From an uncultured Tepidisphaeraceae bacterium (lineage in GTDB: Bacteria > Planctomycetota > Phycisphaerae > Tepidisphaerales > Tepidisphaeraceae): a stretch of DNA of 39,946 bases. The notes under the pieces are model-generated. The model was not told the origin of the DNA, searched no databases, and saw only the letters and a program-made list of their open reading frames with translations. Every line of letters begins with the position of its first letter. The first letter of the stretch is position 1. The stretch is taken from contig CAZCKE010000001.1 of NCBI GenBank assembly GCA_964499005.1, forward strand, positions 1 to 39,946, in the 5' to 3' direction. This document shows, piece by piece, positions 6,001 to 27,847 of this stretch. The position numbers and the translations under genes are program-made.

Positions 6001-9000
6001 TTCCGCGTCCGTACCGTCGGACCCGGCAATGCATATGTCTCCGATGTCTCCAATGTGGCCAGCGCCGCGCCATTTGCCGTCGCGCAAGCCGCCCAGCCGA
6101 CCGGCCTGACCGTGACCGTTTTATCCAACTCCGAAATCCGCGTCCGATGGAACGACAATGCAAACAACGAGGATCACTACTCGGTCGTGCTCTACTGGAA
6201 TGGCGGGCTGGATATTCCGAACGAAACGGACGGCTCGGAGGAAAACACGATCTATGACATGCGCGAGGTCGCCTCGGACGTGAACGATGTCGTCATCGAC
6301 GACTTGCAGGGGGACACGCTCTATGAAGCGCGCGTGCACGCGACCAACTATGCCGGAGCTTCGGTGGTTTCGGACATGGTGGAAGTGCAAACACTTCCCG
6401 ATCCACCAACCGGTTTAGCCGCCGTCGCGACCTCGCCGACGACGGTTCACGTCAGTTGGAACCAGGTGCTTAGTTCCTCGGGCTATCATCTGCAACGCAG
6501 CCTTGATGGACAAAACTGGACCAGCGTCGGACCGGCGACGATCACAGACACCAGCTACGACGATACGAACGTCGGCGCCAATTACCTCTACCGTATTTCG
6601 ACGACAATGCCGGATGGCGACTCCCCGTTCAGCGCCGCGGCGGCGATATCGGAACCCAGCATTACCGATTTCAGCGCGAATAACGTCACGACGAGCGAAA
6701 TCGACCTGGCATGGACCCCGCTGAGTTCCGCGTCGAGCTACGAAATCGAACGCAGCACGGGCAACAACTTCATGTGGACGCTGCTTGCCACGGTGGATGG
6801 AAGCGCCAGCAGTTACGCCGACACTAATCTGATCACCGGAACGTCTTATTACTATCGCATACGGGCCCGCAACGCGATCGCCAGCTCGGCCTATACCAAC
6901 ATCAGCGCGATCACCATGCTGCCCACCCCGATCAATCTGGCTGGCAGCGTCTCGGCAACTTCCGCCAGCCTCAGTTGGATCAGCAGTGAAAGCGCCGTCA
7001 CTTACCTGATCCAGCAACAGATCAATGGTATCTGGCAAACCGTTTCCAGCGTGTTCAACACAAACCAAGCAACCTTCGGCGGCAGCTTCGCCCCCTCGAC
7101 GGTCTATAATTTTAGAGTCTCCGCGCGATCGGGCGGCGCCAGTTCAGATTTTTCGGATTCGCTCGCGGTCACTTCGCCGGATTTTGCCCCAACGCCGAGC
7201 GGGTTTACCGCCTCCAATCCCTCGTTCACATCGATCGATTTGTCCTGGGCCGCCAGTGCCGGCGCGCAAGATCAATTTATTCTGGAACGATCCAGCAACG
7301 GCGGGGCCTTCTCCACGATTGCTGTCCTGGATGGAAGCACCAGCGCCTTCACGGACAGCGGATTGGCTGACGGGACCTCCTACACGTACCGACTCTCGGC
7401 AAGCAATTCAGCGGGACGATCAGGCTTTACCGTGCTCAGCGCCACCACGGCTTTGGATGTACCCATTCATTTTGCCGCATCTTCCGTTACCTCTTCGGCC
7501 ATTACACTCACCTGGCAGGCGGCCAACGCCAACGCCGCTTACAATCTCTTCCAGTCCACCGATGACATCACCTGGCAGCCGCTGTCTCAACAGTCGCAGT
7601 TTGCCCGCTCGTTTGTGGTTACCGGCGCCTATCCTCCCGGCACGCCGTATTATTTCCGCATTCAAGCGTCGCTGAGCGGAATGCTCTCCGCGACGGTCGA
7701 TTTGTCGGGGACCACCCCTGCGTATCCACAGAAGCCGGCGGGGATTTCCTTAACCAATGTCGGCATGACGGGCGTCAGCATTAGCTGGACGCCCGGCTCG
7801 TCGGACGCCACGCAATTCCAAGTGCAACGCGGCATCTTCGCCAACTTCTGGCAGACGCTGGCCACAGTCGATGGCAGCGTCACATCCTATTTCGACAACT
7901 CGGTCGCTCACAATACCTCGTACAGTTACCGGATCATCGCGGTTAATGCCTTTGGACAATCGATTCCCGGCAATTCAGCCTCCATCGTCACGCCGTTGGT
8001 GGCGCCCGCGGCGCTGGCCGTGACCAGCGTCTCGGGCCATGAAACCGATCTGTCGTGGGCGCTGCCCAGCGAAGCGCTGAGCGGCCTGGATATCTACCGC
8101 TCGACCAGCGCTTCCTCGCTGGGGACGGTCATCGCGTCCATCGGGACAACGGACACCACCTATTCGGATTCAGGTCCGTTCAATTCCAATGCAACGTACT
8201 ACTATACCGTGGTTGCCAAGAGCGGATCGGTGAGCGCTGCGAGCGCGAGCGTCGCCGTCACGACGGGGAATTTCCCCCAGACTCCGACCAACGTCACCCT
8301 CGTCAACGGCAATTCGGAATATCGATTGAATTTGGCCTGGTCCGCCGTCGCGGGCGCGAGCAGTTACACGATCTATCGACGGACGGTGAGCACGCAGTGG
8401 ACCTTCATTAATACCGTCGACGGGTCGGTGCAAAGTCCCGGCTATTCCGATAGCGGGTTGGACCCCGGTCGGGCTTATGAATACCGGATCACGGCCAGCA
8501 ATGCCGCCGGCGAATCGGGATATTCCACGGTGGCGGCTTTGGCAACCTCCCTCATCGATCCGGCATCGCCTGATGGGCTGACCATCACGGCTGATCCGAA
8601 CGATGGCACGGTCCTGAACCTGACGTGGACCAATCACGCCGGCGACCAGAGCGGCTTTGAGGTGCAATCGGCCGAGTGGGGCGCCACAAACTTTGCCATG
8701 AACGATATCTATTCCTCCTCGGTGACGATCGGCCCCAGCGCCACGTCGTATCAAGCGACGGGCCTGGTCAGTGGTCAGACATATTTCTTCCGCGTGCGTG
8801 CGATCCGTCCGGATGGCCCGAGCGACTGGTCCAACGAAGCCTATGGGATCACCGCCGACCCGCAGCAGTTCGGCGGGCAATATGCCGCCGCTCCTGGCAT
8901 CGTCGGCGGCGCGCCCCTTCCCGGACCCAGCGGCTTCCTGCACCAGTACGTCGTCACCGTCAACGGCAACGACGTCTATAACTTTGTCCCGACCGCCGAC

Positions 9001-11241
9001 GTTCCTGTTTCAGGCAAGCTGGTCTTCTCCAGCGCTCCGGTCTGGGCGAGCTCGCCGGAGGATGCGATGCGGCGGGCGCTGGTGGCCGATCAAAGCTCCA
9101 TCGTCCTTCCCTCGGGGGACGGCATGGCCCCGTCGATCAACATCCCCTGGCTCGACCCGCGCTATCTGCGGCTGGAGTTCCTGTCGTTCATCGGCAATCC
9201 CGAAGGGGAATCGGGCGTGGACGCTTCCGGCGAATCCGATCTGGACGGGGCGACGGGGCATTTCCGAACGTACATTTCCTACAACAACGACTACTACAAC
9301 TGGACCATCCACCCCTGTCCGAACATCGACATTTACGAGTATTATGAGGGGACGCATCAGGAGAACGGCGTGTGGGTGCCCGACCCGTATACGCCGGCGC
9401 AGCTCGATAGCTTTACGGCGACGGATGGGAATAATTCGGGGAACAGCGTGACGGCAAGTGATGCGAATCCAGTCACGCTATATATTCCAGTAAATTATGG
9501 AGGTCGAGTATCTATTAACCTGTCTGATCAAGCAATTGCTGCATCAGATGGCGATCTCGATGATGTCTTGTGGGATGCTCGTGGAAGCAATAACGCCGTA
9601 ATTTCGTCAGGTACTTTCTCCTCTGGTCCGACAATTACACTCGATGCACCCAGCGAGGGTGACACTATCACGATTGAGGCCGGCGTCGATAGAAGCGGAA
9701 ACGATAAATTGGAAGGAACTGAAGTCACCCGAACAATCAAGGTAGTCTTTCAAAAGTTGATTCTTGCCTGGAATACTTCCGAACAAGAGAATAGCCAATT
9801 ACACGGTTTCGCTCTCGATATTGGGGGCATAACCTCTACACCGAATGAAGTATTCGACCCAACTTTAGCACTCGGTAACCAATCATTGACGATCGACTGG
9901 GGCGATGGATCGCCGGTTGACGATGGTACTGCGCCGCACTTTTTTGATGATGAAGGAGAATATCAAGTACACATTTCAGGTACGGACCCAACCGGTCGTC
10001 AATTCGTCACGTCTTTTTCAATCGATGTCGCTGATCCTGCCGAGCCTGCTGATCCGGTTGAACAGGCATCGCTCGAAAGCGGAGCACTGAGTTGGGATTC
10101 TATAAATGGGGCTGTCCGTTACGACATCTATCAAGGTGCTGATTCAAGCATTGGAGACATGACTTATGTAACCTCCGTTACTTCACCTGGGTATTCAATT
10201 CCAGACAATGGCGGCAATGGAGTCTTCTATTCCATCGTTGCTATCATGCCCGATAACACACAGCAACCTGCTGGTGACATTTTCGCGTCACCTCCGAGCA
10301 CCGCTCCGTCAAATATTGGACCAGCACCGTCGGTGCCGCCGCCATTATTTACTTATGTCGGGGTGGCAACATCAGCACAAAACGGCGCCGCAATCGCAGC
10401 TTTAAAACTACGATATGCAGCAGATCCATCAAACATCAATAATCTGCTAGTGGGAATACATGATGTGACGATTACCGATATCGGAGCTATAGTCGATTTT
10501 AATGGATCCTTTTCTTCCATTGGCAACATAAAAAAGGATGCCGCTGGAAATTATGTTCGCGAGGGAGGTTATGCAACAGCGAGAGCTTGGATGATTAGCA
10601 TGGCAGGTCACCAGCGCACGAACATACAAGATCTGGGAAACGGGACACTTACCGCTAATCTCCAAGATGGTACCAACGTCAAATTGTCTAAAGATGGGGA
10701 TTGGGGAGACGTCCTTATTACCACTTCTGCAGGAGTAGTTACTCCCGTGACATTTGAGAATCCGGTGCGAGAGACAGATTTTAGATTTGCAGGACCAGGT
10801 CAAGGAGCTCAAGGGAATATTGATGTGACGGACTTCATCAATAGTGTATTGATAGAAGAAAAAGATGCAACGGGTTTATTGAACCCATGGAATCTTAAGA
10901 ACCCGGCTGCGCCTGATCCAAAAGTTGCAGATAAGAAGAAAACGGAATTGGCATGGGCGCAAGAAAAGATTTTTAACGATACAAAAGCGCGTCTGTTAAA
11001 ATTGCAGCGAGCCGGGCAGGTCACCTATGCAGAACCTGGGAAATACGTCGGTCCGGTGACACCCCCAACTATTGATAAATACCAAGCTATAACAAAAGTG
11101 GTAATCCGATTTGTCGGTAATCCAGCCACATATGCTAATTGGTCATTTATTATTATAGCCGGCAACCAAGTTGAAGCACTGAATAATGATCCACAGCTAA
11201 AAGCGTACGGATATACGTTCTCAATCCAATGGCCATTTTAG
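1..11241 (+). CDS. Giant secreted/surface repeat protein (5' partial, more than 3,740 aa visible): FN3 array, PKD/Ig-like domains and a variable C-terminal module
   Basis: Frame 1 has no stop from nt 1 up to the TTG at 55 used by the ORF track, so the gene is cut by the window edge. The translation shows about 22-24 FN3-type modules with recurring Y-x-[YF]-R-[VI]-x-A signatures (YYFRIRA, YTYRVQA, YFFRVIA, YYYRIRA, YEYRITA). PKD-type modules carry SNDPDGDSISSW...WGDG motifs. Stop is TAG at 11239-11241. Confidence 0.95.
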   Translation, partial: GSYQVQVSIQDFNGQTSPLSTVALVNYTGATAPTAPTNFAVSAGQTNTTFSWSGGSGTNFSGFMVYGITSSNTVVTLGTTGSSTRSLTIANSSMPSTVVQAFVVAETSTFPVAYSQYSNIAAVRVNSLSVPAAPANLAATLALSSGHAVANLIWDNTSDAELGYYVQRQLHSNPGSWATIATLAADQDSYADTIPDVSKIYDYQIIAFNNKGNSSASNTVTVSCLPTVTLGSIPSATEGSGMTLTSTTSPAISGDSLSYAWSIFDQNGNPYTPSGVALNQSSLTFTPIDSGNWSVSLKATDSTISSGSQIASTTINSGNIPVAVLPPTVTISGSSSYSAGPGGYRLNVSAVYPSNDPDGDSISSWTVNWGDGVPGNPDIVTYTNIVDHIYHPYTTPNPNVTITASATDDDGTYAANLISLTVTPSVSDLSATADTHGAINVRWVYFWPGGHFDIQRSTDGATFTTISSMSADSSTNELLYTDTSGQANTHYYYRIHGTDSAGYNFYTNIASATTAAPGTYGAAPLDTIVVPVDGSSVVSNVTLLAGVHYLLQASGAFFLGGDIGRADAEYSYSPYNNTVIADDANVNYGVDINDTSNDLNKSTWWGPYNTSHVYTIDFIGTGQQLSFNLHDDNYSDNVQDNNPSPLEVQIFAEYPAAPSNLTAQYSVASQQVNLSWTDNAATETGFRIERSTDGQNFSLLQTLNSPSSGIGGTVTAADATAVLGQKYWYRVFAIGPSGFDPNAPSNVAVLSLAGPTVTLGSVPSAAEGSSMTLTSTATAANSSDTLAYAWSIFDAGTLYTPSGVALNQSSLTFTPNDPGNWWATLAVTETQTGATTTASTGTFAVANLPPTVSISGASTVAQSVAYTLSLSAVYPSNDPDGDSISSWQIDWGDGTSSNPDVQTVSGNPSSVTHVYQVQPASGVITATATDDDGTYAANPLHIQVTAPPAVTIVGAPSTSPEGTAITLTGTTSNFPTAPSFLWSVTKDGQAYTSGLGPTNQGSFTFTPNDDGVYVVTLVGTAGSVQASNSQTINVTMVAPTASIIGLTQTITEGNTVYLAAQASDPSSVDAATLQYAWTVTANGNAFASGTAQSFSFTPTDGSVYDVSLTVTDPDGQSTTVTGSTQPIPKAPMTLIAETVASDTINLRWQDESHIEDYYKIEASSDNGNTYAQLGTASVDITHFLATGLNPGTRYLFRVTGIRNGQGTNIATAIASTDPAALTGLTATAVANSDSQIHLTWNAPSGSINPNIEAIQVEYRSNEDFNYTQLQPFSPTTTSTTLTNLDPNTVYYFRIRAWTTPGAYHGPDYLGNNDSVNLSPYSALATATTNNVLPTAPTNVTASATGLPGQIHVTWSGDSTYADGFNVRVSTDGGQSFDPPVVTPGPTTSMVDLNWWDPRQSYVVEVSAFNKVGESTSTVSGSVTPTAMGAVGSLQASPVSNHQIQLSWAYTPAPSSNSYFPTFIIQASVEGGPFATIWTTNGTSYNDINLTAGTSYTYRVQAQYNGGFSDYSASATAITTNALPLDLSNPSLSDTLSFGVLSFGYTAPTDLNRDGINVEISTDGVNYAPATLPVSFFGAPNSIVGLEPGTTYYVRAYAYNSVGRSDYLYFNPVATHAVTSPTMISASTPTASIGYPQANSNTQLALQWNYSPTPGTSEPQSFEIQQLAQGDSDYHDAGTLQNFNPSNNIVTTLIKNLTPGVSYQYRVRAVYADYYKTNWSDASAPVSTTALLPSMPSNLSATPSGSTQAIFNWNSSSLVTDAFSVQISSDGTNFTDAGTTLFVPNASTFGIPVQGLAPSTTYFLRVQAFNSVGVSGWTDAVSVTTGPASSGNAPIVPVAPSATTLDSAIAVNPGEIDLQWTSVDRATAYLAEISSDDTTFTPIGQTSGTSYAARGLTISTHYFFRVIASNAGGDAPPSNVLDATTPPYAAPANLTATPVSQTQISLAWTETNTDESGFRVEESTDGLTYAPVNQVSHPPTTTPSDMRAYLVQGLNPGQLYYFRVRTVGPGNAYVSDVSNVASAAPFAVAQAAQPTGLTVTVLSNSEIRVRWNDNANNEDHYSVVLYWNGGLDIPNETDGSEENTIYDMREVASDVNDVVIDDLQGDTLYEARVHATNYAGASVVSDMVEVQTLPDPPTGLAAVATSPTTVHVSWNQVLSSSGYHLQRSLDGQNWTSVGPATITDTSYDDTNVGANYLYRISTTMPDGDSPFSAAAAISEPSITDFSANNVTTSEIDLAWTPLSSASSYEIERSTGNNFMWTLLATVDGSASSYADTNLITGTSYYYRIRARNAIASSAYTNISAITMLPTPINLAGSVSATSASLSWISSESAVTYLIQQQINGIWQTVSSVFNTNQATFGGSFAPSTVYNFRVSARSGGASSDFSDSLAVTSPDFAPTPSGFTASNPSFTSIDLSWAASAGAQDQFILERSSNGGAFSTIAVLDGSTSAFTDSGLADGTSYTYRLSASNSAGRSGFTVLSATTALDVPIHFAASSVTSSAITLTWQAANANAAYNLFQSTDDITWQPLSQQSQFARSFVVTGAYPPGTPYYFRIQASLSGMLSATVDLSGTTPAYPQKPAGISLTNVGMTGVSISWTPGSSDATQFQVQRGIFANFWQTLATVDGSVTSYFDNSVAHNTSYSYRIIAVNAFGQSIPGNSASIVTPLVAPAALAVTSVSGHETDLSWALPSEALSGLDIYRSTSASSLGTVIASIGTTDTTYSDSGPFNSNATYYYTVVAKSGSVSAASASVAVTTGNFPQTPTNVTLVNGNSEYRLNLAWSAVAGASSYTIYRRTVSTQWTFINTVDGSVQSPGYSDSGLDPGRAYEYRITASNAAGESGYSTVAALATSLIDPASPDGLTITADPNDGTVLNLTWTNHAGDQSGFEVQSAEWGATNFAMNDIYSSSVTIGPSATSYQATGLVSGQTYFFRVRAIRPDGPSDWSNEAYGITADPQQFGGQYAAAPGIVGGAPLPGPSGFLHQYVVTVNGNDVYNFVPTADVPVSGKLVFSSAPVWASSPEDAMRRALVADQSSIVLPSGDGMAPSINIPWLDPRYLRLEFLSFIGNPEGESGVDASGESDLDGATGHFRTYISYNNDYYNWTIHPCPNIDIYEYYEGTHQENGVWVPDPYTPAQLDSFTATDGNNSGNSVTASDANPVTLYIPVNYGGRVSINLSDQAIAASDGDLDDVLWDARGSNNAVISSGTFSSGPTITLDAPSEGDTITIEAGVDRSGNDKLEGTEVTRTIKVVFQKLILAWNTSEQENSQLHGFALDIGGITSTPNEVFDPTLALGNQSLTIDWGDGSPVDDGTAPHFFDDEGEYQVHISGTDPTGRQFVTSFSIDVADPAEPADPVEQASLESGALSWDSINGAVRYDIYQGADSSIGDMTYVTSVTSPGYSIPDNGGNGVFYSIVAIMPDNTQQPAGDIFASPPSTAPSNIGPAPSVPPPLFTYVGVATSAQNGAAIAALKLRYAADPSNINNLLVGIHDVTITDIGAIVDFNGSFSSIGNIKKDAAGNYVREGGYATARAWMISMAGHQRTNIQDLGNGTLTANLQDGTNVKLSKDGDWGDVLITTSAGVVTPVTFENPVRETDFRFAGPGQGAQGNIDVTDFINSVLIEEKDATGLLNPWNLKNPAAPDPKVADKKKTELAWAQEKIFNDTKARLLKLQRAGQVTYAEPGKYVGPVTPPTIDKYQAITKVVIRFVGNPATYANWSFIIIAGNQVEALNNDPQLKAYGYTFSIQWPF
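670..1269 (+). repeat. Internal segmental duplication, copy A (pair of PKD/Ig-like domains)
   Basis: Encodes LPTVTLGSIPSATEGSGMTLTS...YAWSIFD...ALNQSSLTFTP...PPTVTISG...VYPSNDPDGDSISSWTVNWGDG...ATDDDGTYAAN, collinear with copy B. Shared nucleotide runs include gcctggtcgatcttcgat and gacagcatcagctcatgg. Confidence 0.85.
2260..2832 (+). repeat. Internal segmental duplication, copy B (pair of PKD/Ig-like domains)
   Basis: Encodes GPTVTLGSVPSAAEGSSMTLTS...YAWSIFD...ALNQSSLTFTP...PPTVSISG...VYPSNDPDGDSISSWQIDWGDG...ATDDDGTYAAN, collinear with 670-1269. Confidence 0.85.
3370..8840 (+). repeat. Uninterrupted array of about 20 diverged FN3-type modules (protein-level repeats of roughly 90-100 aa) inside the giant CDS
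   Basis: Each unit has an 'L(T/S)A...(I/L)xLxW' start and a 'Y(Y/F)(F/Y)R(V/I)xAxN..G.S..S' end. Units are diverged at nucleotide level, so this is not a simple tandem DNA repeat. Confidence 0.8.
8950..9047 (+). repeat. Junction segment of the giant gene that recurs at 15333-15430
   Basis: gtcgtcaccgtcaacggcaacgacgtctat...ccggtctgggcg (VVTVNGNDVYNFVPTADVPVSGKLVFSSAPVWA) aligns without gaps to 15333-15430. About four fifths of the bases look identical by eye. Confidence 0.85.
9406..9750 (+). repeat. Conserved roughly 115-aa Ig-like 'pre-tip' module of the giant gene (AT-rich version), homologous to 12183-12518
   Basis: DSFTATDGNNSGNSVTAS...[17 protein letters not shown]...SSGTFSSGPTITL...EAGVDRSGNDKLEGTEVTRTI aligns with the start of the 12117 ORF. 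About half the residues are identical by eye, including long identical runs. Synonymous positions differ strongly (A/T here, G/C there). Confidence 0.85.
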
Positions 11242-11260: not shown

Positions 11261-11575
11261 ATGTCAATAAGTTTAACCATAAGTTGGGCGGACGGGCGCT
11301 TTGAGCAAATTCCGGTGGCTGGACAGCTATCTGCCAGTACAAGCTGGCGAGACCTTGGACTAGAATTGGGATTAAAATGGTTGCCACTTTTTCACGCTTG
11401 GATACCAGTGGAACCGGAAAATCTGGACGCACTAATCAGCGAGGTAGAAAGATTTCGTGACGCTGCTTCAAAGCGAGGCGACAAATGGAAGTCTATTACA
11501 GAAAGCGCGGATCGACTTACCACAGCATTGCGTGATTTGAAAGATAAAAGCGGCTGGGAAGCATCAATTGGTTGA
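11261..11575 (+). CDS. Small soluble hypothetical protein (104 aa); candidate cognate immunity/antidote for the giant protein's C-terminal tip
   Basis: ATG lies 19 nt after the giant gene's stop on the same strand. It shares the AT-rich composition of the giant gene's tip. No hydrophobic segment and no recognisable motif. Position is the only functional evidence. Confidence 0.6.
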   Translation: MSISLTISWADGRFEQIPVAGQLSASTSWRDLGLELGLKWLPLFHAWIPVEPENLDALISEVERFRDAASKRGDKWKSITESADRLTTALRDLKDKSGWEASIG

Positions 11576-11643: not shown

Positions 11644-12108
11644 ATGATTACGACCAAGTTACGTAATATCGCGCGATCCTTGGTGAATTTGAGCTTTGGC
11701 ACACTTAGCGCCATATCGCTGTGCATAGTGATAGTGTTGGTTGTTATTCGTCTTAGTGGACGAACATGGACTTACTCGATGCCTCTAGCAACAACTCCGC
11801 AGGCATATCACCTTAACTCGTCCGTAGATGTCGAAGTCAATTATTCTGGCGGTATAGCCATCGAGCAAGATTACCTACCCCACATATTTGGCAGAAGGAT
11901 CCCATATTTCGCGGCTATCGTTTTCACAACAATTGTCCCGATTCTTTACGCGATTTTTTACTGGTATCGCGCGCGCGAGAGAAGATATCGCCTTGCAAGT
12001 AAAGTTTGCGCCATTTGCGGCTACGACCTCCGCGCTACCCCAGACCGCTGTCCGGAATGCGGCGCCATTCCCAAAAGCTCCATCAAGCCATCTCTGCCCA
12101 TGTTTTGA
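11644..12108 (+). CDS. Two-pass membrane protein with C-terminal CxxC...CxxC zinc ribbon ([19 protein letters not shown])
   Basis: Two hydrophobic spans (about aa 14-36 and 86-108) flank a roughly 50-aa loop. A basic stretch (RARERRYR) and a 4-Cys ribbon follow. It has the same architecture as 14693-15328 and a nearly identical C-terminal 30 aa. Confidence 0.75.
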
Positions 12109-12116
12109 TTGGCGGT

Positions 12117-14696
12117 ATGGTAAAAAATCTCATCCGCGCATTGCGGCCAATCCTGAGCGTCGATCTGACGGCGCCAGAGACGGATAGCTTGACGGGAACA
12201 GATAGCACCAATTCAAATAATAGCGTGACGGCGGAAGGAACGCAGGAGCTGTACGTGCTGGTGAATGCCAATGGGAACGCGACGGTGAAGTTCTCGGACA
12301 GTGCGATCGCGGCTTCGGACGGGGACACCGATGACGTGCTGTGGCGCGTATTGCAGGGCAATACGACCATCGGCTCGGGGACGTTCTCCAGCGGGGCGAC
12401 TATCACGCTCAATCCGGCAACCCAGGGAACGGAGTTCATCGCCGAGGCGGGCGTGGACATGTCGGGCAATGACAAGCTGGAAGAGCCGGAGGTGACCGAG
12501 ACGATTCGGATTCACCTCACGCATTTCGGCGGCATCACCGCATTTCGTACCGATGGGAAATTTGGTCAGGCTGTCACACGAGCTATTCAACAGACCAATG
12601 ATCCGACGAAATACGTCGTACTTGTCAACGACAACTTTGACCAAACGCTTGATCAGAGCCAAGCGGACAACGCGTTACCTACAGCACCGATTCAAAATGA
12701 TCAGATGCAACTCGATCAAAACGGTAATCCGCTCGATCCTGACTTTGGACACATTACGCTGCACCAGCTCCCGCAGGGGTTCATTGGCGGAACAGTAACT
12801 TTGCTACTATCCGACCCAAGTGCGGTAAAGCTCTTTGATAAAAATGGCCAGGCGCTCACCTCCGGCGATCTGACCCTCAATCTGTCAAATCCCAGCGGCT
12901 ATCTTGCTGGCCTGTTGTCAGGCGACGTAGATATCTGGTTTGAGGGGATGCACACGAGTCCAGATTTCAGTTTCACGATTTCCTATAATGAGCCTGCGGT
13001 AAGCCAATATTCCCAAGATGTGGTGCATCTGCTCATCGCCGACTGGCAGTTCGTCGGCTCCGATGGCAATCGGCTCACCAACGATGTCTCTACAGTTTCC
13101 GAGGAAACGTTGACGGATGAAGCTAACGGCAATCTGGATTCACCGACTATTCCTAACGAAGACAAGTTCAAAGTTCTTTTAGACGGCTTGCCCAGCACCG
13201 CACTCCAATCGCTTCAATTCAACTCAATATCGGGCCCAACGGACAGCTTCCTAGACACATTTTCGGGGACTTCATCCTCAACCTCATCGAATAATTTCAC
13301 GGTGATGTATGGTGTTCCCGATGGTTTAAGTCAGTTTTCGACGAGCCAGCGGAGCTCCATTTTAAGTGCCCTCGGAGTTAACGCCATTGCCGCGAATACA
13401 GTTCGAGTAATCGCGCAATTGGCGAATGATGTTTTACAACAGGAGATCAAAGCTGACCCCATGCGCGTAACATTTGTCAGCGGAGAAGATCCAACGGATG
13501 GGACTATTGAAACAAGGAGATCAATTGACAATAACGAGCCCTTTTACATGAAGGGCTATATGCTGGAACTGGAAGTCAACAATAAAGTCGGCACTCAGGT
13601 CCAATGGTCATTTCAGAAGATAGGGCATGGCAACCAGGATTTCGGGGCTTTTTATGACGGCCATGATTGGGTGGATTATGCGGATAACCACAAATTGAAC
13701 GCCAAACCGACGGATGGCCTCGTAAATTGGCGATCTGACTTTGATGCTAACGGCGATATCAATGATGAATATTCCATTACGGCCAAATACACCAAGCCGG
13801 ATGGCACGCCGGGATTCTCGACTCTTCATTTAAAGAGCCGGCTTCTGGACCCAAATGACCCCAACGCCAGTGCGAAATACCACACCGACGCGGATATGGC
13901 GCAGAGAGCGCTCATCCAGGATTTCGGCCTCGACAAAGGGCGATTAAGCTCTTATCGCATCGGACAATATGATAAGGGCTCCCAAAATGGCTGGTACGTG
14001 TCGTCGCGGCAGATGAATGTGCGTCAATGGTCCGCTATCGCAGACGAGGTCTCGAATTTCCGCCATTTCGCGCTCAACAAGGCATTTGATCCGACGCTTC
14101 TTCTGGACACAGTTACGGGCATTTGGAATGAGTTTTCCAAGATTCTTGCCGCACCACTCCCTAATAAAGTGGACCAGAATAACGCACAATTCGGAAATTG
14201 GATCACTCAGGCATTAACGGCCAGCGGACTTACGGCACCAAATGGAGCGTCCGTGACCAGTGAACAAATCTTGCGGGCTTTGATCACGCATGAGAGCGGA
14301 GGAACGCATTCCTATGATTTGCAAGCGCCGCTTGCCGCTAACTACATTCAGGTCGGGACACAAAACAACGGAGCTGGGGCCAATTTGCACCAATTAACTG
14401 ACTGGGGGCTTGGCTTCGCGAAAGTCCAACCATATAACGACAATGGCTTGAATCTGTATGACCCCTATCAAAATATCTTACGTGGAGCACAAATGTTCGC
14501 GGCTGCCCTTGCAAACCAGGGAATAAATGAAGTGGGAGACAATAGGATCTGGATGGCCTATTACTACTATAATTCGGGGCACATCGAAAATGGGTCAATA
14601 GATGGCGCGGGAGGAGCTCGTGCAGTAAATAGATTCGGTGCCGCAGATCACGCCGACGCTTTCTTTAGTGCTTTAGGGCTTCAGCCTCCCCAATGA
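12117..14696 (+). CDS. Orphan C-terminal module of the giant-protein family (about 859 aa): conserved Ig-like pre-tip module, unknown middle, lytic-transglycosylase (SLT/lysozyme-like) C-terminus
   Basis: The ORF-track start at 12006 overlaps the preceding gene. The first in-frame ATG after that gene's stop is 12117. The N-terminus has no signal peptide and aligns to aa about 3118-3232 of the giant protein. The C-terminus carries SLT-type motifs in order: LITHESGG (catalytic E-S), [33 protein letters not shown]. The stop overlaps the next start (caATGAac). Confidence 0.8.
12183..12518 (+). repeat. Conserved Ig-like pre-tip module, GC-rich copy (homolog of 9406-9750)
   Basis: [18 protein letters not shown]...[17 protein letters not shown]...[13 protein letters not shown]...[21 protein letters not shown]. 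Similarity to the giant protein stops right after this block. Confidence 0.85.
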
Positions 14697-15328
14697 ACGT
14701 ACCAACGAACCAAAAATGGAAACGACGATTTACGCGAACGGCACTTATTCTCGATATAGTTCTCTTGCTTTCTGCCGTTACAGCTTGGACGATTAGCAAT
14801 TTTTTCGCCTTCGGTATAATACAGCGAGAGTACGAAATATCTGTTGCTAAAAATTCTCTATTCGATGACGATGGCAATGAATTCGTTTCTCGCTATCGCG
14901 GCTTGGATGTCTCCATGGGGGTCATCATATACTTTGTTTACATTGATCGACTGTCATTAACGCACGTTCCGAGCGACACCAAGCTGCAGGTTTCCGGAAC
15001 CCATTTCGTGCTTGATAAAAGACGCAATTCGCCAAGCCTACTCAGAAAAGGCATTTTGGGGATCGAAGTACGTAATGAACCACCGCATCAAGCAGGACAG
15101 CTCGGCAGTATCGGCTCCTCATTATTGATTTGCGTGCCGTTGTGGTTTTTCTGCATTCTTTTTAGCGTGTGGCCATTACGAATTTTGGTCGGGTTCGTGC
15201 GTCGCCGCGACTACGCCGCCATTCGCTGCGAGACTTGCGGTTACGACCTGCGCGCCACTCCTGATCGTTGTCCGGAGTGCGGCGCTGTTCCCGAACATCC
15301 AATCAAACCCTCATCGTCGATAACTTGA
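14693..15328 (+). CDS. Two-pass membrane protein with C-terminal zinc ribbon ([19 protein letters not shown]); candidate immunity partner of the SLT-like orphan module
   Basis: ATGA start/stop overlap with the upstream module. TM1 is about aa 16-42, followed by a roughly 100-aa loop and TM2 at about aa 141-170, then RRRDY and a 4-Cys ribbon. The C-terminal 30 aa nearly match those of 11644-12108 (DNA 15227-15316 versus 12007-12096). Confidence 0.75.
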
Positions 15329-15332
15329 TTGA

Positions 15333-15443
15333 GTCGTGACCGTCAACGGCACCGACGTCTACCACTTCTTCCCCGATGCCACCGTTCCCGTTTCGGGCAC
15401 GCTGGTTTTCTCCAGCGATCCGGTCTGGCGTAGTGTAAAATAA
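15333..15443 (+). pseudogene. Third orphan fragment of the giant-gene junction region, truncated by IS insertion
   Basis: It starts 5 nt after the previous stop and encodes VVTVNGTDVYHFFPDATVPVSGTLVFSSDPVW, homologous to 8950-9047. Homology ends at about 15430, where the sequence runs into tgtaaaataattc (IS end) and a stop at 15441-15443. Confidence 0.8.
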
Positions 15444-16707
15444 TTCATCCGCGTCTCATGCGGCCTCCTTGTAATAGAATTTCAGCAGTCCACCCAACCG
15501 TTCCCGGCACTGCACCGGTCCATCGCGAGGATAATCAGTGTCGGTGAGCGCGGGAAACAGGAGCCGATTCTGCTTACCTTGATGCGGCCGCTCGGAATGG
15601 TAATGCTCGATGTACTGCGTGACGGCGTGGCGCAGGGGCGCTTCGCCGAAGAAGATCATCCGGTCCAGGCACTCCGATTTGATCGAGCGGACAAAACGCT
15701 CCGCGAACGCATTGAGATTGGGACTTTGCGGCGGCAGAGCCAGCGGCTCAATGCCGGCGGCGCGGAAGATCATGTCAAAGCCACTGGAGAATTTCGTATC
15801 CCGGTCGTGCAGAAGATATCGGCAGCGGGAGAGCAGATCGCAGCCGCTCATGGTGAGGTTGCGTGCTGCCTGCTTCATCCACGCGTTGGTGGGATTGGCG
15901 GTGATGCCGCCGAAATAAACTTTGCGGCTGGCGACGTGTATGAAGAACAGGACGTAATACGTGACCAACCCGCAGGCGGTCCAGACTTCGGTGGTGAAAA
16001 AGTCCGTGGCCAGCAGACAATCGGCGTGGGACTTGATGAAGTCGGACCAGTCGGTCTTCCTTTTTCGCATCGGCACCGGGTCGATGCCATGTTCTTCGAG
16101 GATGTTTTTGACGGTCTGATGGCTGAGTCCATGGCCGATGGCAGCCAGCGCGCCGGTGATCCGCCGATAACCCCAAGCTGGATTTTCGTTGGCCAATCGG
16201 AGGACTTGCATCACGGCGGCCGGATCGGTCGGCGGCCGACCGGGGACGGCGGCTGCCCGGCGGTCGGAGGTGTCGAACTTTCGGGCCACGAGTTGCCGAT
16301 GCCAACGAAGGATCGTATCCGGCGTGACGATGGAGGCGACGTCCTGGAGGAGTTTGCGGCCGAGCTTCTTGCCGATCGTGGCCAGTGTGGCGCGTTGGGC
16401 GTCGTTCAATCGCCGTCGGCCGGAGAGTTGATCGCGGAGGATTTTGTTCTCGGCGGTCAGGTATTCGATTTTCAATTGAAGCTGATGGTCAATGCGGCCG
16501 GCGACCCAGGCGAGGATTTTTTCCCAGCCCGTGGAATGGGATTGAGGCATCGGGTGAATGTAACGGTGTCGGCGGGATTCTAAAAAGAGAGATCGGCAGG
16601 AAAACCGCCAAGAGATTTTGGGGCAGATTTGGGGCAAAACGGCCTCCAGAAACAGTCCAGAGGCAGTTCAACGCCAGTTCGCACTCAGTTCATAAGTCCC
16701 GTTTACA
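15431..16707 (-). mobile_element. Insertion sequence with single rve/DDE transposase (IS481-like); boundaries approximate
   Basis: The left boundary is where homology to the giant gene breaks (about 15430), followed by TGTAAA. The proposed right end is the complementary TTTACA at 16702-16707. The terminal inverted repeat is weak beyond 6 nt and I found no target-site duplication. Confidence 0.55.
15456..16550 (-). CDS. DDE transposase / integrase core (rve) domain protein with N-terminal HTH region
   Basis: rve-type landmarks in order: LLATDFF (D), LLHDRDTKF (D), NAFAERFVRSIKSE (E), then YNSERPHQG-like HYHSERPHQG. I prefer the ATG at 16550 (MPQSHSTGWEK). The ORF track extends to 16637 with an implausible Cys/Arg-rich leader. 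Confidence 0.9.
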   Translation of the reverse strand: MPQSHSTGWEKILAWVAGRIDHQLQLKIEYLTAENKILRDQLSGRRRLNDAQRATLATIGKKLGRKLLQDVASIVTPDTILRWHRQLVARKFDTSDRRAAAVPGRPPTDPAAVMQVLRLANENPAWGYRRITGALAAIGHGLSHQTVKNILEEHGIDPVPMRKRKTDWSDFIKSHADCLLATDFFTTEVWTACGLVTYYVLFFIHVASRKVYFGGITANPTNAWMKQAARNLTMSGCDLLSRCRYLLHDRDTKFSSGFDMIFRAAGIEPLALPPQSPNLNAFAERFVRSIKSECLDRMIFFGEAPLRHAVTQYIEHYHSERPHQGKQNRLLFPALTDTDYPRDGPVQCRERLGGLLKFYYKEAA

Positions 16708-16895: not shown

Positions 16896-17654
16896 ATGTC
16901 AGACGCAACGAACTCCGTGGCCCGGCGCGCCAAGCCCACCGAACTCCTCTCCCACTGGCCCAAACTGATCGAGAACCTCAGCTTCTCTCCGCAGGAGTTC
17001 TACTCGCGTATCGAAAAAGCCCTGGCCGACCGTCAGGTTCCCGACCTGCAAACCTCACGAGTGGATTGGAAGGAAGGCGGCGTGCTTTCGGCCCGCCGCG
17101 AATACCTGCGCCTCCAGCGCGAGCGGCTGATCTTCGACATCTGCGGCGCTCCCTTCGGCACCGGTTTTTTCGTCTCAATCTGGTGCGGCGAGCGGCCCTT
17201 GAGGCTGGGGCACCTGATCCGAGCCCTGATCTTGGTGGGAAGCGGAGCGGTGACGTGGTTTGGGATACTGCAATTCACGCCCCGCTCCACGTTTTATGAA
17301 ATGCGGCGCATGGGCATCGATCCGGGACATGCGCTCATCGCCATCACGGCCGCCGTCGTCCTGGTGGCCACCTTCCTGATCGTGCTGCTGGGCCCCAGGC
17401 TCGATAACATCCTGATCCACACGCCTGTGATCGGATACTTCTACGAGCGCTACTTCCGAAAACTCACCTACTACCGCGTGGACCGGATGTGCATGTATCA
17501 ACAGGCTGTGCATGCGGCGGTCATGCAAATCATCGACGAGATCACCAAATCCCAGGGCATCCAACCCCTCTCGGAACTGGAACGCCGGCCGATCACCAGA
17601 GAACCGGTCATGAGGGAACTGTTCCAGCAAGCCGGTTCCAATGGGCACGGCTGA
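16896..17654 (+). CDS. Hypothetical membrane protein (about 252 aa from ATG 16896; ORF open from 16818)
   Basis: A soluble N-terminal roughly 100 aa (SFSPQEFYSRIEKALADRQVPDL...) is followed by 2-3 hydrophobic spans (GFFVSIWCG, LILVGSGAVTWFGILQF, ALIAITAAVVLVATFLIVLLGP) and a roughly 90-aa tail. Its stop overlaps the next gene by 14 nt (ATGGGCACGGCTGA). Start codon is uncertain (16818 TTG, 16848 ATG or 16896 ATG). Confidence 0.7.
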   Translation: MSDATNSVARRAKPTELLSHWPKLIENLSFSPQEFYSRIEKALADRQVPDLQTSRVDWKEGGVLSARREYLRLQRERLIFDICGAPFGTGFFVSIWCGERPLRLGHLIRALILVGSGAVTWFGILQFTPRSTFYEMRRMGIDPGHALIAITAAVVLVATFLIVLLGPRLDNILIHTPVIGYFYERYFRKLTYYRVDRMCMYQQAVHAAVMQIIDEITKSQGIQPLSELERRPITREPVMRELFQQAGSNGHG

Positions 17655-20600
17655 ACCTCCGGCAACTTCAGTTCTCTCTCCAGCCCAACAGCTTGCCCAG
17701 CAATTCTATGATTGGGAACTGCGGGGAAGGGGATGGCTAATGTGGGATCGTCCGGTGGAACCGGAGCCGCCCTTTCAACCTTTTTTCGATCATGTCATCG
17801 CGCCCGTCGATGGCGACGACGGCAGGAAACACACCCTCCTCAGCGGTCTGATCGATTGGCTGCACCAAAAGGTCACGGGTCAGGGAAATAATACCTCTGC
17901 ACAGACAATCGAAGAATCGCCAGGGGAATTCGAGCCGATCGAACTCGCCGAGCCTTCCGATTTGGTGGAGCTGAGGATATCGCTTCCCCAGAACCTGGAC
18001 GTATCCCAAGAAGCCGCCGAGCAATTCCTGCTGAGCCTATCGACCGTCCGCCGCCCGGTTGCGTTTGAATTGATCGGATTGCCCGAGACGATGATCGTGC
18101 AATTCGCCTGCGAAGGGGATGATGCCGCTCATCTGGAGCAACAATTGAGAGCCATCTTTCCCGACGTAACCGTCAGTGTCCACGCCGGTCTTCTACAAGA
18201 GTACTGGCAGGAGCCAGAGAATGCCGAAACGGTCATCGCCGAATTCGGCCTCGCCCGCGAATTCATGCTGCCCCTGGCGATGCCCGGATTCTCCGTTGAT
18301 CCACTGACCGGCATCGCCGGCGCCCTGGTGGATGTGCGGGAAGATGAAATCGCCCTCCTGCAAATCCTGTTTCAACCCGTCCGGCACCCTTGGGCCCAAA
18401 GCGTGCTGCGCTCCGTCACGTTCTCCGATGGCACGCCCCTATTCGAGGGCATGCGGGATTTTGTCAAACAGGGCAGAAACAAAGTCTCTCGGCCTCTGTA
18501 CGGCGCGGTCATTCGCGCCTGTTGCCAAAGCCCCGAGGGCAGCCGGACTTGGGATATGGTGCGACATGTCTCAGGAGCACTGTCGGTACTTTCGGACGCC
18601 CAAGGCAATGAACTGATCCCGCTTGATAACGACAATTACGACCCGACCGATCATGAGCACGATGTCCTCTTTCGCCGCAGCCGCCGCTGCGGGATGCTTC
18701 TCAACAGCGAGGAGCTGACCTCACTGGTTCATCTCCCCTCGGCCTCCGTTCGCATTCCCAAGCTGCGCGGACAAGCGAAGAAAACAAAACCCGTCCCGCC
18801 GATGGTCCTGGGCCATCAAACGGTACTGGGGATCAATGAGCATGCCGGACGATCCCAGTCGGTGACAATGAGCCCCGACCAACGCTCGAAGCACCTGCAC
18901 CTCATCGGCGCCTCGGGAACCGGCAAATCCACCCTTCTCTTAAACCTCATTATCCAAGACATCAACAAGGGCGATGGTGTTGCCGTCCTCGATCCCCACG
19001 GTGATCTAGTGGATGCGGTCTTGCAACGAATCCCTCCCCAGCGGAGAGGGGATGTAGTGCTCTTTGATCCGGGGGATGAGGACTATCCGGTCGGGTTCAA
19101 CATCCTCTCCGCCCACTCGGAACTTGAGAAAAATCTGCTCTCCTCCGACCTGGTCGCCGTCTTTCGCCGCTTCTCCACCAGTTGGGGCGACCAAATGAAC
19201 GCCGTCTTGGGCAACGCGATCATCGCTTTCCTGGAAAGCGAGCGGGGAGGGACTTTGGTGGACCTGAGGCGGTTCCTGGTCGAAGCCAAGTTCCGCAAAG
19301 AGTTCCTCTCCAGCGTCCGCGACCCGGAAATCGTCTACTACTGGGCGAAGGAGTTCCCGCTCCTGAGCGGCCGGGCTCAGGCTCCGGTTTTAACCCGCTT
19401 GGATGCCTTCCTGCGCCCCAAGCTGATCCGCTACATGGTGGGCCAAAAGCAGAGCAAGCTGGATTTAGGCCAGGTCATGGACAATGGGGGTATTCTCCTG
19501 GCCCGCCTGTCCCACGGAGCGATCGGCGAAGAAAATGCCCAACTGCTGGGCACGATGCTCGTTTCCAAGCTCCATCAGATGGCACTGGGCCGCCAGCGGA
19601 TTGCGGAGACGGATCGCAAATACTTCTGGCTCTACATCGATGAATTCCAGAACTTCGCGACGCCATCGATGGCGGCGATTCTCACGGGAGCACGGAAGTA
19701 TCGCCTGGGGCTTGTTCCGGCCCATCAGGAGCTTCACCAGTTGACCAGCAAGACACCGGAGGTCGCCAGCGCGGTGATGTCCAACGCTTTCACGCGCGTC
19801 TGCTTCCGGCTGGGGGATGAGGATGCCAAAAAGCTTGCCGGCGGTTTTGCCTCCTTTGAGCCTATTGATTTACAGAACCTCTCGACAGGCGAGGCGATCT
19901 GTCGGGTGGAACGGGCGGAGTTGGACTTTAATCTTCGCACATTGCCTCTGGCGCCAGTCGATGAGCAAACGGCGGCGACCGCGCGACAAGAGGCAATCAC
20001 TGCCTCTCGCCAGAGATATGCCGTCCCGCGCGCCAACGTTGAAGCAGAACTATGCCGCTCGCCCGGGGATGAGGAAGCTGGGGTACAAGAAGCGAAGGTT
20101 TGGGAAAAGCCAGATCAGAATGTGGATATCAAGCTTCCCGAGCCGGTCTTGGCTCCGCCATCTACACCCGTCGGACCCAAGCCCGTCCCTCGTCCGCAAA
20201 AAGTTACCAGCGATGTCATGATCGAGCCGCCACCCCAAGGCCGGGGCGGACCCGAGCACAAATACCTCCAGCAATTGATTAAACAGTATGCCGAGGGCCT
20301 GGGGTTCAAAGCCTCCATCGAGGAAAACATCCTCGGCGGAAAGGGCGTGGATGTTGCTTTGACCAAATGCGACACCTCCATCGCCTGCGAAATCTGCATC
20401 ACGACGGACGATGCTCATGAATTGGGGAATGTGCAGAAGTGCCTCACAGCCGGCTACAAGCATGTTGCGGTCATCAGCCCCAGCGCCAATCGATTGAAGA
20501 GTCTTGAGAAAGCGATTAGCCCCCAATTGGCGGATGACCAGAGATCGCGTGTGAAGTTCTTTGCACCCGAGGAATTGCTGCGGTTCATCCAACAGTTGGA

Positions 20601-20760
20601 AGTCCAGCAATTGACCCAGGAGAAGATCGTGCGGGGCTACAAGATCAAAACCAGCTTCAAGGTCATGGATGAAGCGGACGGGGACATTCGCCGGCAGGCC
20701 GTTTCTCAGACGGTGGCCAAGGCGATCAAGCGTTTGCAGGATCGCAAGGCCAAGAAATAA
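17641..20760 (+). CDS. Large P-loop NTPase of the TraD/VirD4/TraG-HerA/FtsK type (1039 aa) with unknown roughly 400-aa N-domain and possible PD-(D/E)xK-like C-terminal domain
   Basis: Walker A GASGTGKST at 18907-18933. Walker B hhhhDE in FWLYIDEFQNF at about 19624-19653, followed by RKYRLGLVPAHQELHQL (coupling-protein/TraG-D_C-like Q-x-x-x-QL). After a Pro-rich linker comes GRGGPEHKYL...GVDVAL...IACEICITT...NVQKCL (20233-20505), which resembles a restriction-endonuclease-fold core. Confidence 0.85.
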   Translation: MGTAEPPATSVLSPAQQLAQQFYDWELRGRGWLMWDRPVEPEPPFQPFFDHVIAPVDGDDGRKHTLLSGLIDWLHQKVTGQGNNTSAQTIEESPGEFEPIELAEPSDLVELRISLPQNLDVSQEAAEQFLLSLSTVRRPVAFELIGLPETMIVQFACEGDDAAHLEQQLRAIFPDVTVSVHAGLLQEYWQEPENAETVIAEFGLAREFMLPLAMPGFSVDPLTGIAGALVDVREDEIALLQILFQPVRHPWAQSVLRSVTFSDGTPLFEGMRDFVKQGRNKVSRPLYGAVIRACCQSPEGSRTWDMVRHVSGALSVLSDAQGNELIPLDNDNYDPTDHEHDVLFRRSRRCGMLLNSEELTSLVHLPSASVRIPKLRGQAKKTKPVPPMVLGHQTVLGINEHAGRSQSVTMSPDQRSKHLHLIGASGTGKSTLLLNLIIQDINKGDGVAVLDPHGDLVDAVLQRIPPQRRGDVVLFDPGDEDYPVGFNILSAHSELEKNLLSSDLVAVFRRFSTSWGDQMNAVLGNAIIAFLESERGGTLVDLRRFLVEAKFRKEFLSSVRDPEIVYYWAKEFPLLSGRAQAPVLTRLDAFLRPKLIRYMVGQKQSKLDLGQVMDNGGILLARLSHGAIGEENAQLLGTMLVSKLHQMALGRQRIAETDRKYFWLYIDEFQNFATPSMAAILTGARKYRLGLVPAHQELHQLTSKTPEVASAVMSNAFTRVCFRLGDEDAKKLAGGFASFEPIDLQNLSTGEAICRVERAELDFNLRTLPLAPVDEQTAATARQEAITASRQRYAVPRANVEAELCRSPGDEEAGVQEAKVWEKPDQNVDIKLPEPVLAPPSTPVGPKPVPRPQKVTSDVMIEPPPQGRGGPEHKYLQQLIKQYAEGLGFKASIEENILGGKGVDVALTKCDTSIACEICITTDDAHELGNVQKCLTAGYKHVAVISPSANRLKSLEKAISPQLADDQRSRVKFFAPEELLRFIQQLEVQQLTQEKIVRGYKIKTSFKVMDEADGDIRRQAVSQTVAKAIKRLQDRKAKK

Positions 20761-20801
20761 CTTCCTCACCCAATAAAAATTCAAAAGTAGAGAGATTTTG
20801 C

Positions 20802-20853
20802 TGGCATCTGGAATGCCAATCTGCAAAATGGCAACGCAATGGAGGTGTTGCCA
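20802..20853 (+). promoter_or_regulatory. Two adjacent TGGCA/TGCCA inverted repeats immediately upstream of (and touching) the recombinase start codon
   Basis: TGGCAT-ctgga-ATGCCA (20802-20818) and TGGCAAC-gcaatggaggt-GTTGCCA (20829-20853, ending in the ATG). This could be an operator, a recombinase site or a translation-occluding hairpin. The first also has sigma54-like GG/GC spacing. Confidence 0.3.
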
Positions 20854-27788: not shown

Positions 27789-27803
27789 AAATAACGGATT
27801 CCA

Positions 27804-27847
27804 ATCAAAGCCTTGGCCGAACGAAGAGTTACGGTCGAGGCTTTGAT
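27804..27847 (+). terminator. Possible weak intrinsic terminator after the dehydrogenase gene
   Basis: Perfect outer stem atcaaagcc / ggctttgat, extendable inward by about 7 further pairs (two G-U). Only a short T tract (agttt) follows. Confidence 0.3.

Follow-up and report, generated by a model that had tools for sequence, protein, structure and literature searches.

The orphan cassette and its presumed carrier gene

The stretch of DNA analysed here (the window) comprises 39,946 nucleotides (nt), positions 1 to 39,946 of the forward strand of contig CAZCKE010000001.1 (GenBank assembly GCA_964499005.1), and comes from an uncultured Tepidisphaeraceae bacterium of the phylum Planctomycetota. 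Its first gene, hereafter the main gene, encodes a giant repeat-rich protein. Behind it lies an open reading frame (ORF), the orphan, which starts with a segment homologous to the main gene, carries a 727-amino-acid (aa) alternative C-terminus for it and ends in a GH23-like domain, the superfamily of lytic transglycosylases and goose lysozyme. This domain, the cassette that bears it and the small membrane-protein gene overlapping its end are the subject of this work, and the features concerned are the following.

55–11241, plus strand: main gene, encoding a 3728-aa protein according to the ORF list; presumed carrier, with a C-terminus replaceable by downstream cassettes
9391–9744, plus strand: main-gene pre-tip segment (aa 3113-3230), shared by homology with the beginning of the orphan
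12117–14696, plus strand: orphan cassette ORF, 859 aa from its ATG, in a frame open from 12006
12165–12512, plus strand: orphan counterpart of the pre-tip segment, aligned by tblastn to main-gene aa 3112-3230 (53.8% over 119 aa, E 6e-27)
13461–13838, plus strand: predicted immunoglobulin (Ig)-like beta-sandwich (ORF aa 486-611), which opens a conserved terminal module of ~425 aa
14031–14693, plus strand: predicted helical N-lobe and GH23 (SLT/goose-lysozyme-like) core (ORF aa 676-896)
14292–14294, plus strand: codon GAG of E763, the predicted general-acid glutamate, in an HES motif
14400–14429, plus strand: D799-x-G-x-G-F-x-x-x-Q808, the putative GLMQ-equivalent strand (D in 33/35 and Q, within KVQ, in 33/34 relatives)
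14693–15328, plus strand: 211-aa partner gene, whose start overlaps the orphan stop by 4 nt (ATGA); candidate immunity protein
15333–15434, plus strand: beginning of a third cassette, interrupted by an insertion sequence; its homologue in the main gene is aa 2966-2999

The main-gene product contains at least 14 FN3 repeats (Pfam fn3, E 3.8e-118, in 14 stretches) and a PKD domain (PKD_4, E 6.5e-19). The ORF behind it had been labelled an orphan tip in the first-pass annotation, and the label is apt: ORF aa 55-169 share 54% identity with main-gene aa 3113-3230 over 118 aa (BLASTP, E 6e-27), the two proteins then diverge fully, with no similarity detected by BLASTP downstream of this stretch, and a further cassette fragment follows. 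In the pre-tip segment, main gene and orphan are too different in DNA for blastn to recover the match. The orphan frame (12006-14696) runs through 896 uninterrupted codons, in which residues are numbered here, up to a stop codon at 14694-14696, and its ATG at 12117 is located 9 nt past the stop of the preceding gene. The orphan product is also found as an entry of a public protein library (P0002, 859 aa, 100% identical). As for the main gene's own tip of ~500 aa (aa 3231-3728, window 9745-11238), it has no Pfam match, is unrelated to the orphan tip and may be a second toxin domain.

The third cassette begins five bases past the stop of the 211-aa gene and is 34 codons long. It displays 82% DNA identity over 96 nt with main-gene positions 8950-9045 (76% over 34 aa), and no continuation was found by tblastn beyond the insertion sequence. 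An independent Logan assembly of run SRR12313480 (L011) contains an identical locus, including the insertion-sequence junction. A second contig with the 211-aa protein was considered as extra evidence and set aside as uninformative, since it belongs to the same genome and is 100% identical over 2669 nt. Across the 10-15 kb region, which holds the tips and partner genes, the GC (guanine plus cytosine) content drops from ~58% to 45-49% and then recovers, a dip that fits horizontally exchanged cassettes.

The terminal domain and its place in the GH23 superfamily

Relatives of the terminal domain are rare. A word-indexed search of 5.8 billion proteins returned one fragment with the domain as query and three proteins with its profile, only an exhaustive HMMER scan of 1.84 billion cluster representatives brought up the family, with 36 relatives (31 at E <1e-10), and only 2 of 185,579 species genomes carry relatives. 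The relatives bear hypothetical-protein names only, with no Pfam family above threshold, and NCBIfam gave no match for the orphan ORF or its neighbours. Two alignments were used, A1 with 24 of the relatives and another with all 36, and conservation was counted over the sequences covering each column. Pfam SLT (PF01464) matches 14 of the 24 A1 members (best E 5.1e-5), and no other family is found in more than one member.

The window protein itself scores under the Pfam SLT gathering threshold of 21.3 bits, so that its superfamily membership rests on profile-profile, transitive and fold evidence. The profile-profile comparison used hhalign and a reference alignment (A2) of the SLT domains of Escherichia coli K-12 Slt70, MltE, MltC, MltD and MltF, together with goose lysozyme in a sequence identical to PDB 153L. 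A1 and A2 align over 99 columns with a probability of 89.9% (E 1.7e-6); E763 coincides with the catalytic Glu-Ser of the references, which also line up with the family at P-x-x-N and Y-N-x-G. Goose lysozyme alone against the family profile reaches a probability of 1.5% and an E-value of 0.034, which is not significant. The transitive evidence comes from a Candidatus Vecturithrix protein (L005), the only distant relative among the species genomes, which aligns with A1 at 97.7% probability (hhalign, E 1.4e-12) and stands above the Pfam thresholds for both SLT (24.4 bits) and PG_binding_1 (25.3 bits). Closer to the orphan, the relative P0004 obtains 20.8 bits for Pfam SLT over profile positions 14-98. 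From these comparisons and from the fold evidence given below, we regard it as very probable that the domain is a GH23 (SLT/goose-lysozyme) superfamily member with E763 as its catalytic acid. The GH23 domain is real but very divergent.

Conservation in the family is strong at several positions. The glutamate E763, followed by S764, is present in 34/34 relatives covering the column, a histidine five residues further (H768) in 34/35, and the threonine of a T-D pair before the GLGF strand (T798) in 35/35. Towards the C-terminus, the P-x-x-N motif keeps its proline in 29/32 and its asparagine in 31/32 relatives, and the Y-N-x-G motif (AYYYYNSGH in the orphan) keeps its tyrosine in 31/31 and its glycine in 30/30. 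Both C-terminal motifs, P-x-x-N and YYYNSG, align to the reference motifs in the hhalign comparison and in the Pfam match of the window protein, which covers SLT profile positions 55-100 only. The family differs from known GH23 enzymes in the segment in between. Where GLMQ is expected stands a family motif G-[LI]-G-F-x-x-[VI]-Q-P, read as G-L-G-F-A-K-V-Q in the orphan, and its register differs by 2 residues between the two profile alignments (against the SLT-rich A2 and against goose lysozyme). The Glu-to-Gln spacing, which is 18-22 residues in goose lysozyme, Slt70 and MltE, is 45 here; the ~23 surplus residues (HSY...PLA..SV.VGE...H.YTD) between the glutamate and the GLGF strand form added strand elements in the AlphaFold2 model. 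The Vecturithrix branch, compared with A1 by hhalign, has neither the insertion nor the aspartate.

P0034 (553 aa) keeps the catalytic glutamate, but Phe stands in place of the conserved Asp and Leu in place of the conserved Gln; it is therefore probably inactive. P0001, encoded on a 1093-nt JGI contig, is 64% identical to the module up to '...GLGFAKVQP'; from there on its sequence is unrelated and resembles an alpha/beta-hydrolase. The fragment is an assembly chimera or else a natural recombinant broken within the catalytic domain.

The AlphaFold2 model of the last 236 aa, computed on A1 (mean predicted local distance difference test, pLDDT, 86; predicted template modelling score, pTM, 0.85), has a lysozyme-like alpha+beta fold in which E763 is placed at the C-terminal end of a helix (model residues 92-104). 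Ranks 1-31 of the Foldseek search against the PDB are all lytic transglycosylases, namely Pseudomonas aeruginosa MltF, phiKZ gp144, Slt, LtgA and T7 gp16, with MltF giving the best E-value (5e-3) and with probabilities mostly between 0.95 and 1.0 (0.75 for gp144). E. coli MltE appears at rank 39 with a probability of 0.51, amid GH19 chitinases, GH124 and Tse3. Similarly, nearly all of the top ~30 matches in BFVD are named SLT, LT_GEWL, transglycosylase or tail lysin, the others being unnamed (best E 3.2e-4).

These results bear directly on what had been read from the letters of the sequence. The first-pass annotation assigned the domain to the SLT/goose-lysozyme-like enzymes and proposed a comparison with Slt70/MltE-type folds; profile-profile comparison, a Pfam-positive bridging relative and two fold searches now agree on this identity, and the top structural matches in both PDB and BFVD are lytic transglycosylases. 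The glutamate proposed as catalytic aligns to the catalytic position of the GH23 references. All four ordered motifs on which the assignment was built are present, in order and in frame, at 14169-14693. The start of the domain had been put at 14170, which is the right region but one base off the frame, as the codon begins at 14169. Likewise, the last ~170 aa do contain the motifs but the functional unit is far larger, with a helical lobe from ~14031 and a module from ~13458. The suggested search with hidden Markov models had a divided outcome: the window protein alone falls below the Pfam SLT cut-off, and the family profile reaches the GH23 references at the E-value given above.

Within the orphan, the conserved module extends over ~425 aa (ORF aa ~485-896, phmmer limits) and consists of the Ig-like sandwich, the helical lobe and the GH23 core. 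The model of its first part (alignment A3, pLDDT 78) is an Ig-like beta-sandwich followed by helices. For the sandwich, which has no Pfam family, Foldseek retrieved only Ig-like folds (CopC, Ig V-set, Siglec; E ~4e-3). Upstream of the module, orphan aa 170-470 are common only to the closest relatives P0003 and P0004. A motif-bearing region of the orphan's pre-tip part (window 12513-13460) recurs in these two proteins and may be a conserved pre-toxin domain. A match of orphan aa 170-485 to the Vecturithrix carrier (L005, ~7560-7680) was marginal (E 0.041) and is not used as evidence.

Partner genes, related loci and the toxin-cassette interpretation

A small gene follows each tip in the window, at 11644-12108 and at 14693-15328, the latter overlapping its tip gene by 4 nt. 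The features that complete the array are listed here.

11261–11575: 104-aa gene after the main gene, of no family
11644–12108, plus strand: gene of a 154-aa two-span membrane protein, partner-like, after the main gene's own tip
15456–16637, minus strand: insertion-sequence transposase (Pfam rve_3, HTH_32, HTH_21), in an element spanning window 15435-16700

The gene downstream of the orphan had been described as encoding a two-pass membrane protein with a loop of roughly 100 aa, and we recover precisely this arrangement: two hydrophobic spans (13-31 and 144-162), a Lys/Arg-rich N-terminus (5 Lys/Arg in the first 16 aa) and a loop of ~100 aa. The 154-aa protein is built alike, with hydrophobic spans at 17-35 and 86-104, a Lys/Arg-rich N-terminus and a shorter loop of ~50 aa. 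Both proteins end in a zinc ribbon (DZR-type in the 154-aa protein) behind an Arg-rich stretch; this stretch and the two spans predict an N-in/C-in topology for both. The ~100-aa loop of the 211-aa protein is predicted to face the periplasm and its zinc ribbon the cytoplasm. The two proteins resemble each other in the ribbon tail only, where 26/38 residues are identical. At the DNA level, the ribbon tails (12007-12075 and 15227-15295) are 79.7% identical over 69 nt, and each is positioned just upstream of the homology region of the next cassette; this DNA could act as the 3' recombination joint for cassette exchange.

Among the relatives, the module is found at or near the C-terminus of unrelated carriers; these, and the close relative P0004, are as follows.

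P0003: 2159-aa FN3/dockerin-like carrier from JGI sample 3300047160, with a 195-aa gene downstream
P0004: close relative from JGI sample 3300056388, with a 236-aa gene downstream
P0012: TSP3-repeat carrier
L004: Ser-rich carrier, from a Schlesneria metagenome-assembled genome
P0006, P0009, P0018 and P0034: signal-like N-terminus only

The module is not always terminal, as two of these proteins extend past GH23: P0006 with a CarboxypepD_reg-like domain and P0009 with ~95 aa more that have no Pfam match. Arrays comparable to that of the window occur in both Planctomycetota and Moduliflexota. The Vecturithrix locus has the order 1585-aa main gene, 321-aa partner, orphan and 325-aa partner; its orphan is 52% identical to the last 326 aa of the main gene, and the 325-aa partner 41% identical to the 321-aa partner. 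In the Schlesneria locus, two Ser-rich paralogues with different C-termini are each followed by a different exported protein. One of these paralogues (702 aa, L004 4233-7095) shares the Ser-rich N-terminus, has another C-terminal domain without Pfam family and precedes a 246-aa leucine-rich-repeat-like protein with a signal-like N-terminus; the two may represent another toxin-immunity pair of the same array. In four loci (L001, L002/L003, L004 and L012), the module gene is immediately followed by a member of a single protein family, ~270-356 aa long and with a signal-like N-terminus (L001 versus L012, E 4e-39; L004 versus L001, E 2e-6). Every partner seen possesses either an N-terminal hydrophobic signal-like segment or membrane spans and is thus predicted to be exported or anchored, which fits a toxin acting in the periplasm.

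We interpret the pair as toxin and immunity protein, on the grounds of how the cassettes are arranged, of the lowered GC content, of the 4 nt shared with the membrane-protein gene and of the exported partners in five related loci. We consider it probable, on balance, that the orphan encodes a toxin tip cleaving the glycan strands of peptidoglycan, borne by a spare cassette that belongs to a giant, polymorphic surface protein, and that the 211-aa protein is its immunity factor. The ~425-aa module would be the active portion of the 727-aa cassette, an exchangeable C-terminus of the giant FN3/PKD protein. Having reached the periplasm of a target cell, the domain would bind a glycan strand of peptidoglycan and cleave the bond between N-acetylmuramic acid (MurNAc) and beta-1,4-linked N-acetylglucosamine (GlcNAc), with E763 as general acid. 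If it acts as a lytic transglycosylase, the product would be 1,6-anhydroMurNAc; it may instead leave a hydrolysed end, provided that the near-invariant D799 holds a water molecule in place as D86 or D97 does in goose lysozyme. The producer would be protected by the translationally coupled 211-aa protein of the inner membrane, whose periplasmic loop would block the enzyme. Finally, the cassette could take the place of the tip that the main gene now has, through recombination within the pre-tip segment common to both.

Several observations speak against this interpretation. Neither the ORF nor the main gene, the window or ten homologues contains Rhs/YD, PAAR, VgrG, Hcp, LXG or another trafficking domain, and the same set is devoid of MIX/FIX-type markers and of linkage to a type VI secretion system (T6SS); genes for T6SS, Rhs or PAAR are absent from the window. 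The sequence scan found neither signal peptide nor hydrophobic segment in the orphan product, and this product may not be expressed. As for immunity, the first 170 aa of the 211-aa protein returned only the protein itself in the word-indexed search, and no convincing similarity links it to the partners seen in less closely related loci; as it has no homologue outside its ribbon tail, its candidate role is drawn from gene position, overlap and predicted topology. Moreover, several homologues have nothing but a signal peptide beside the module, an arrangement equally suited to an enzyme acting on the producer's own wall. Concerning the domain itself, Pfam SLT gives 9.6 bits on the whole orphan protein and 14.5 bits (E 0.027) on its last 175 aa, and PDB sequences yielded nothing at E up to 10, either by phmmer with the domain or by hmmsearch with the 24-member profile. 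The Foldseek E-values cited above are modest, and TM-scores remain at 0.33-0.44 because of the extra lobe and the insertion, but the matches all point to one fold family.

One alternative is a role in the producer's own envelope. The enzyme could locally open the peptidoglycan of the producer for the assembly or export of the giant surface protein or of some other part of the envelope, with the membrane protein as a regulator or inhibitor, in the manner of specialised transglycosylases of the VirB1, EtgA or FlgJ type. The lack of delivery machinery in the window and the ten homologues, the short homologues that have a signal peptide only and the presence of the housekeeping enzymes MltF, Slt and MltE among the structural neighbours would agree with such a function. 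However, a housekeeping role predicts neither interchangeable C-terminal cassettes with orphan copies, nor the GC dip, nor partners that diversify (41% identical beside 52% identical tips), nor the great rarity of the family (36 clusters in 1.84 billion; 2 of 185,579 species genomes), and we judge it unlikely. That the orphan is a silent or decaying spare part, unexpressed and kept as a relic or reservoir of a former tip, seems rather improbable too; the intactness of its ORF would in that case be incidental. Its product has neither signal nor carrier region, its pre-tip DNA is too unlike that of the main gene for detection by blastn, and the next cassette has already been destroyed by an insertion sequence. 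Yet the 896 codons are uninterrupted, every conserved residue of the catalytic motifs is kept, and both the ATG 9 nt past the upstream stop and the overlap with an intact partner gene are preserved; a silent reservoir would in any case be compatible with the toxin-cassette model.

Two further explanations have much less in their favour. Large surface proteins often end in wall-binding domains and the Vecturithrix relative also carries PG_binding_1, so a lysozyme-like fold might have been retained as a non-catalytic peptidoglycan-binding anchor that tethers the giant protein to the wall. This is highly improbable, since binding-only descendants usually lose the glutamate, which is present here in every covering relative beside near-invariant groove motifs, and the site is degenerate in one member only, P0034. 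An origin as a phage- or mobile-element-derived lysin that lies here by chance could be invoked from the best BFVD matches, which are phage tail and virion transglycosylases, and from a TraG/TrwB-like ATPase and a serine recombinase located 3-6 kb downstream. We give it hardly any credence: the domain has no PHROG match at E <0.4, phage structural genes are missing from the window, and all full-length relatives fuse the domain to cellular FN3, TSP3 or Ser-rich carriers.

The toxin-cassette interpretation can be taken further, to a contact weapon independent of T6SS, which we put forward tentatively and with more doubt than confidence. Giant FN3-repeat surface proteins would carry a multi-domain end-piece, made of the pre-tip domain, the Ig-like sandwich and the GH23 core, into the periplasm of a neighbouring cell. 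The GH23 core would belong to a new subfamily, which the 23-aa insertion and the conserved His, Thr and Asp could make a goose-lysozyme-type hydrolase instead of a lytic transglycosylase. The 3' boundary of cassette exchange would be set by the zinc-ribbon tail that the membrane-anchored immunity proteins have in common.

Further genes lie beyond the array. Just downstream of it (window 17641-22652) are encoded a TrwB/TraG-like coupling-protein ATPase (1039 aa) and a large serine recombinase (599 aa), which suggests that an integrative mobile element adjoins or includes the region. Further downstream, positions 24175-39702 are occupied by a cell-surface polysaccharide cluster with a UDP-glucose dehydrogenase, a Wzy-like polymerase or ligase, a flippase, three GT2 glycosyltransferases, two GNAT-like proteins and a beta-helix/PKD protein.

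Significance and comparison with known systems

Lysozyme- or transglycosylase-like effectors with periplasmic immunity are already established for T6SS, and the kind of system considered here is known as such. What is new is the family, which is rare, unannotated, below the Pfam threshold and marked by a distinctive insertion and conserved His, Thr and Asp residues; its position as the tip in cassette arrays that belong to FN3-type carriers and not to T6SS; and its occurrence in Planctomycetota and Moduliflexota. Unannotated proteins become assignable to a peptidoglycan-cleaving fold with a specific catalytic residue, and the tips of polymorphic toxins would extend to GH23 enzymes outside T6SS. 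Interbacterial antagonism has hardly been studied in these two phyla, and the presence of peptidoglycan in Planctomycetota was accepted only about a decade ago. If the toxin interpretation is true, the wall would be a target in competition among Planctomycetota. Delivery also becomes a concrete question, namely how a 700-aa tip of a repeat-rich surface protein crosses an outer membrane.

Compared with the family 1 lytic transglycosylases (PF01464, GH23; E. coli Slt70 and MltC/D/E/F, P. aeruginosa MltF and Slt), which provide its top structural matches, the domain has the same predicted lysozyme-like fold, with Glu(-Ser) at the end of a helix and P-x-x-N-[IL] and Y-N-x-G in the same order. It differs from them by the ~23-aa insertion, the replacement of GLMQ, the additional near-invariant H768, T798 and D799, and the sub-threshold Pfam score. 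In contrast to lipoprotein or periplasmic housekeeping transglycosylases, it is fused behind an Ig-like domain on toxin-like carriers. With goose lysozyme (153L), a hydrolytic enzyme, it has in common the E-S motif and Y-N-x-G, and in one of the two registers D799-x-G-x-G-F-x-x-x-Q808 corresponds position for position to D86-R-G-N-G-F-G-L-M-Q95. Unlike goose lysozyme, it has no evident equivalent of D97, and the equivalence of D799 and D86 is only a lead.

On the side of effectors, peptidoglycan glycosidases with periplasmic immunity delivered by T6SS include the P. aeruginosa pair Tse3-Tsi3 (PMC3792639) and Acinetobacter baumannii Tse4 (bioRxiv 10.1101/2021.03.04.433973; PMC11796386). The orphan resembles them as a lysozyme/transglycosylase-like enzyme, for which an antibacterial use is proposed here, and by an adjacent candidate immunity gene whose product would be exposed to the periplasm; Tse3 itself is among the weak Foldseek matches (4m5e, E 3.2). 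It differs from them as follows: T6SS genes and adaptor domains are absent; the domain terminates a giant FN3 protein that is polymorphic and has orphan cassettes; and the putative immunity factor spans the membrane twice and has a predicted cytoplasmic zinc ribbon. The likeness to T6SS/Rhs-type effectors drawn in the first-pass annotation therefore holds as an analogy of function and not as membership, since Rhs, PAAR and VgrG are all missing from the window and from the ten homologous carriers.

The array is laid out as a polymorphic toxin locus with standalone cassettes in the sense of Zhang et al. 2012 (PMC3482391), of which the orphan arrays of Rhs and CdiA are examples. A secretion-linked N-terminal trafficking domain was not found: the main gene has FN3 and PKD only, and the homologues are carried by FN3, dockerin-like or TSP3 regions or by nothing, so that the carrier, unlike those of Zhang et al., is without Rhs/YD, filamentous haemagglutinin, LXG, PAAR or any other listed trafficking module. 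Among glycan-cleaving tips, that survey names only a glucosaminidase (PF01832), and the text searched does not contain the word 'transglycosylase'. The shared region followed by differing C-termini that the survey uses to recognise such systems is found here in the main gene and the orphan, as well as in the Schlesneria paralogues. Standalone cassettes stand downstream of a full-length gene (12117-14696 and the fragment 15333-15434), and the Vecturithrix locus has the same layout. As in the Rhs and CdiA arrays, a conserved carrier bears a variable C-terminal tip, promoter-less downstream cassettes open with a carrier-homologous stretch, each tip has its small gene, and the tips are lower in GC. 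What sets the present tip apart from other polymorphic toxin tips is its unusual length, 727 aa that comprise several domains.

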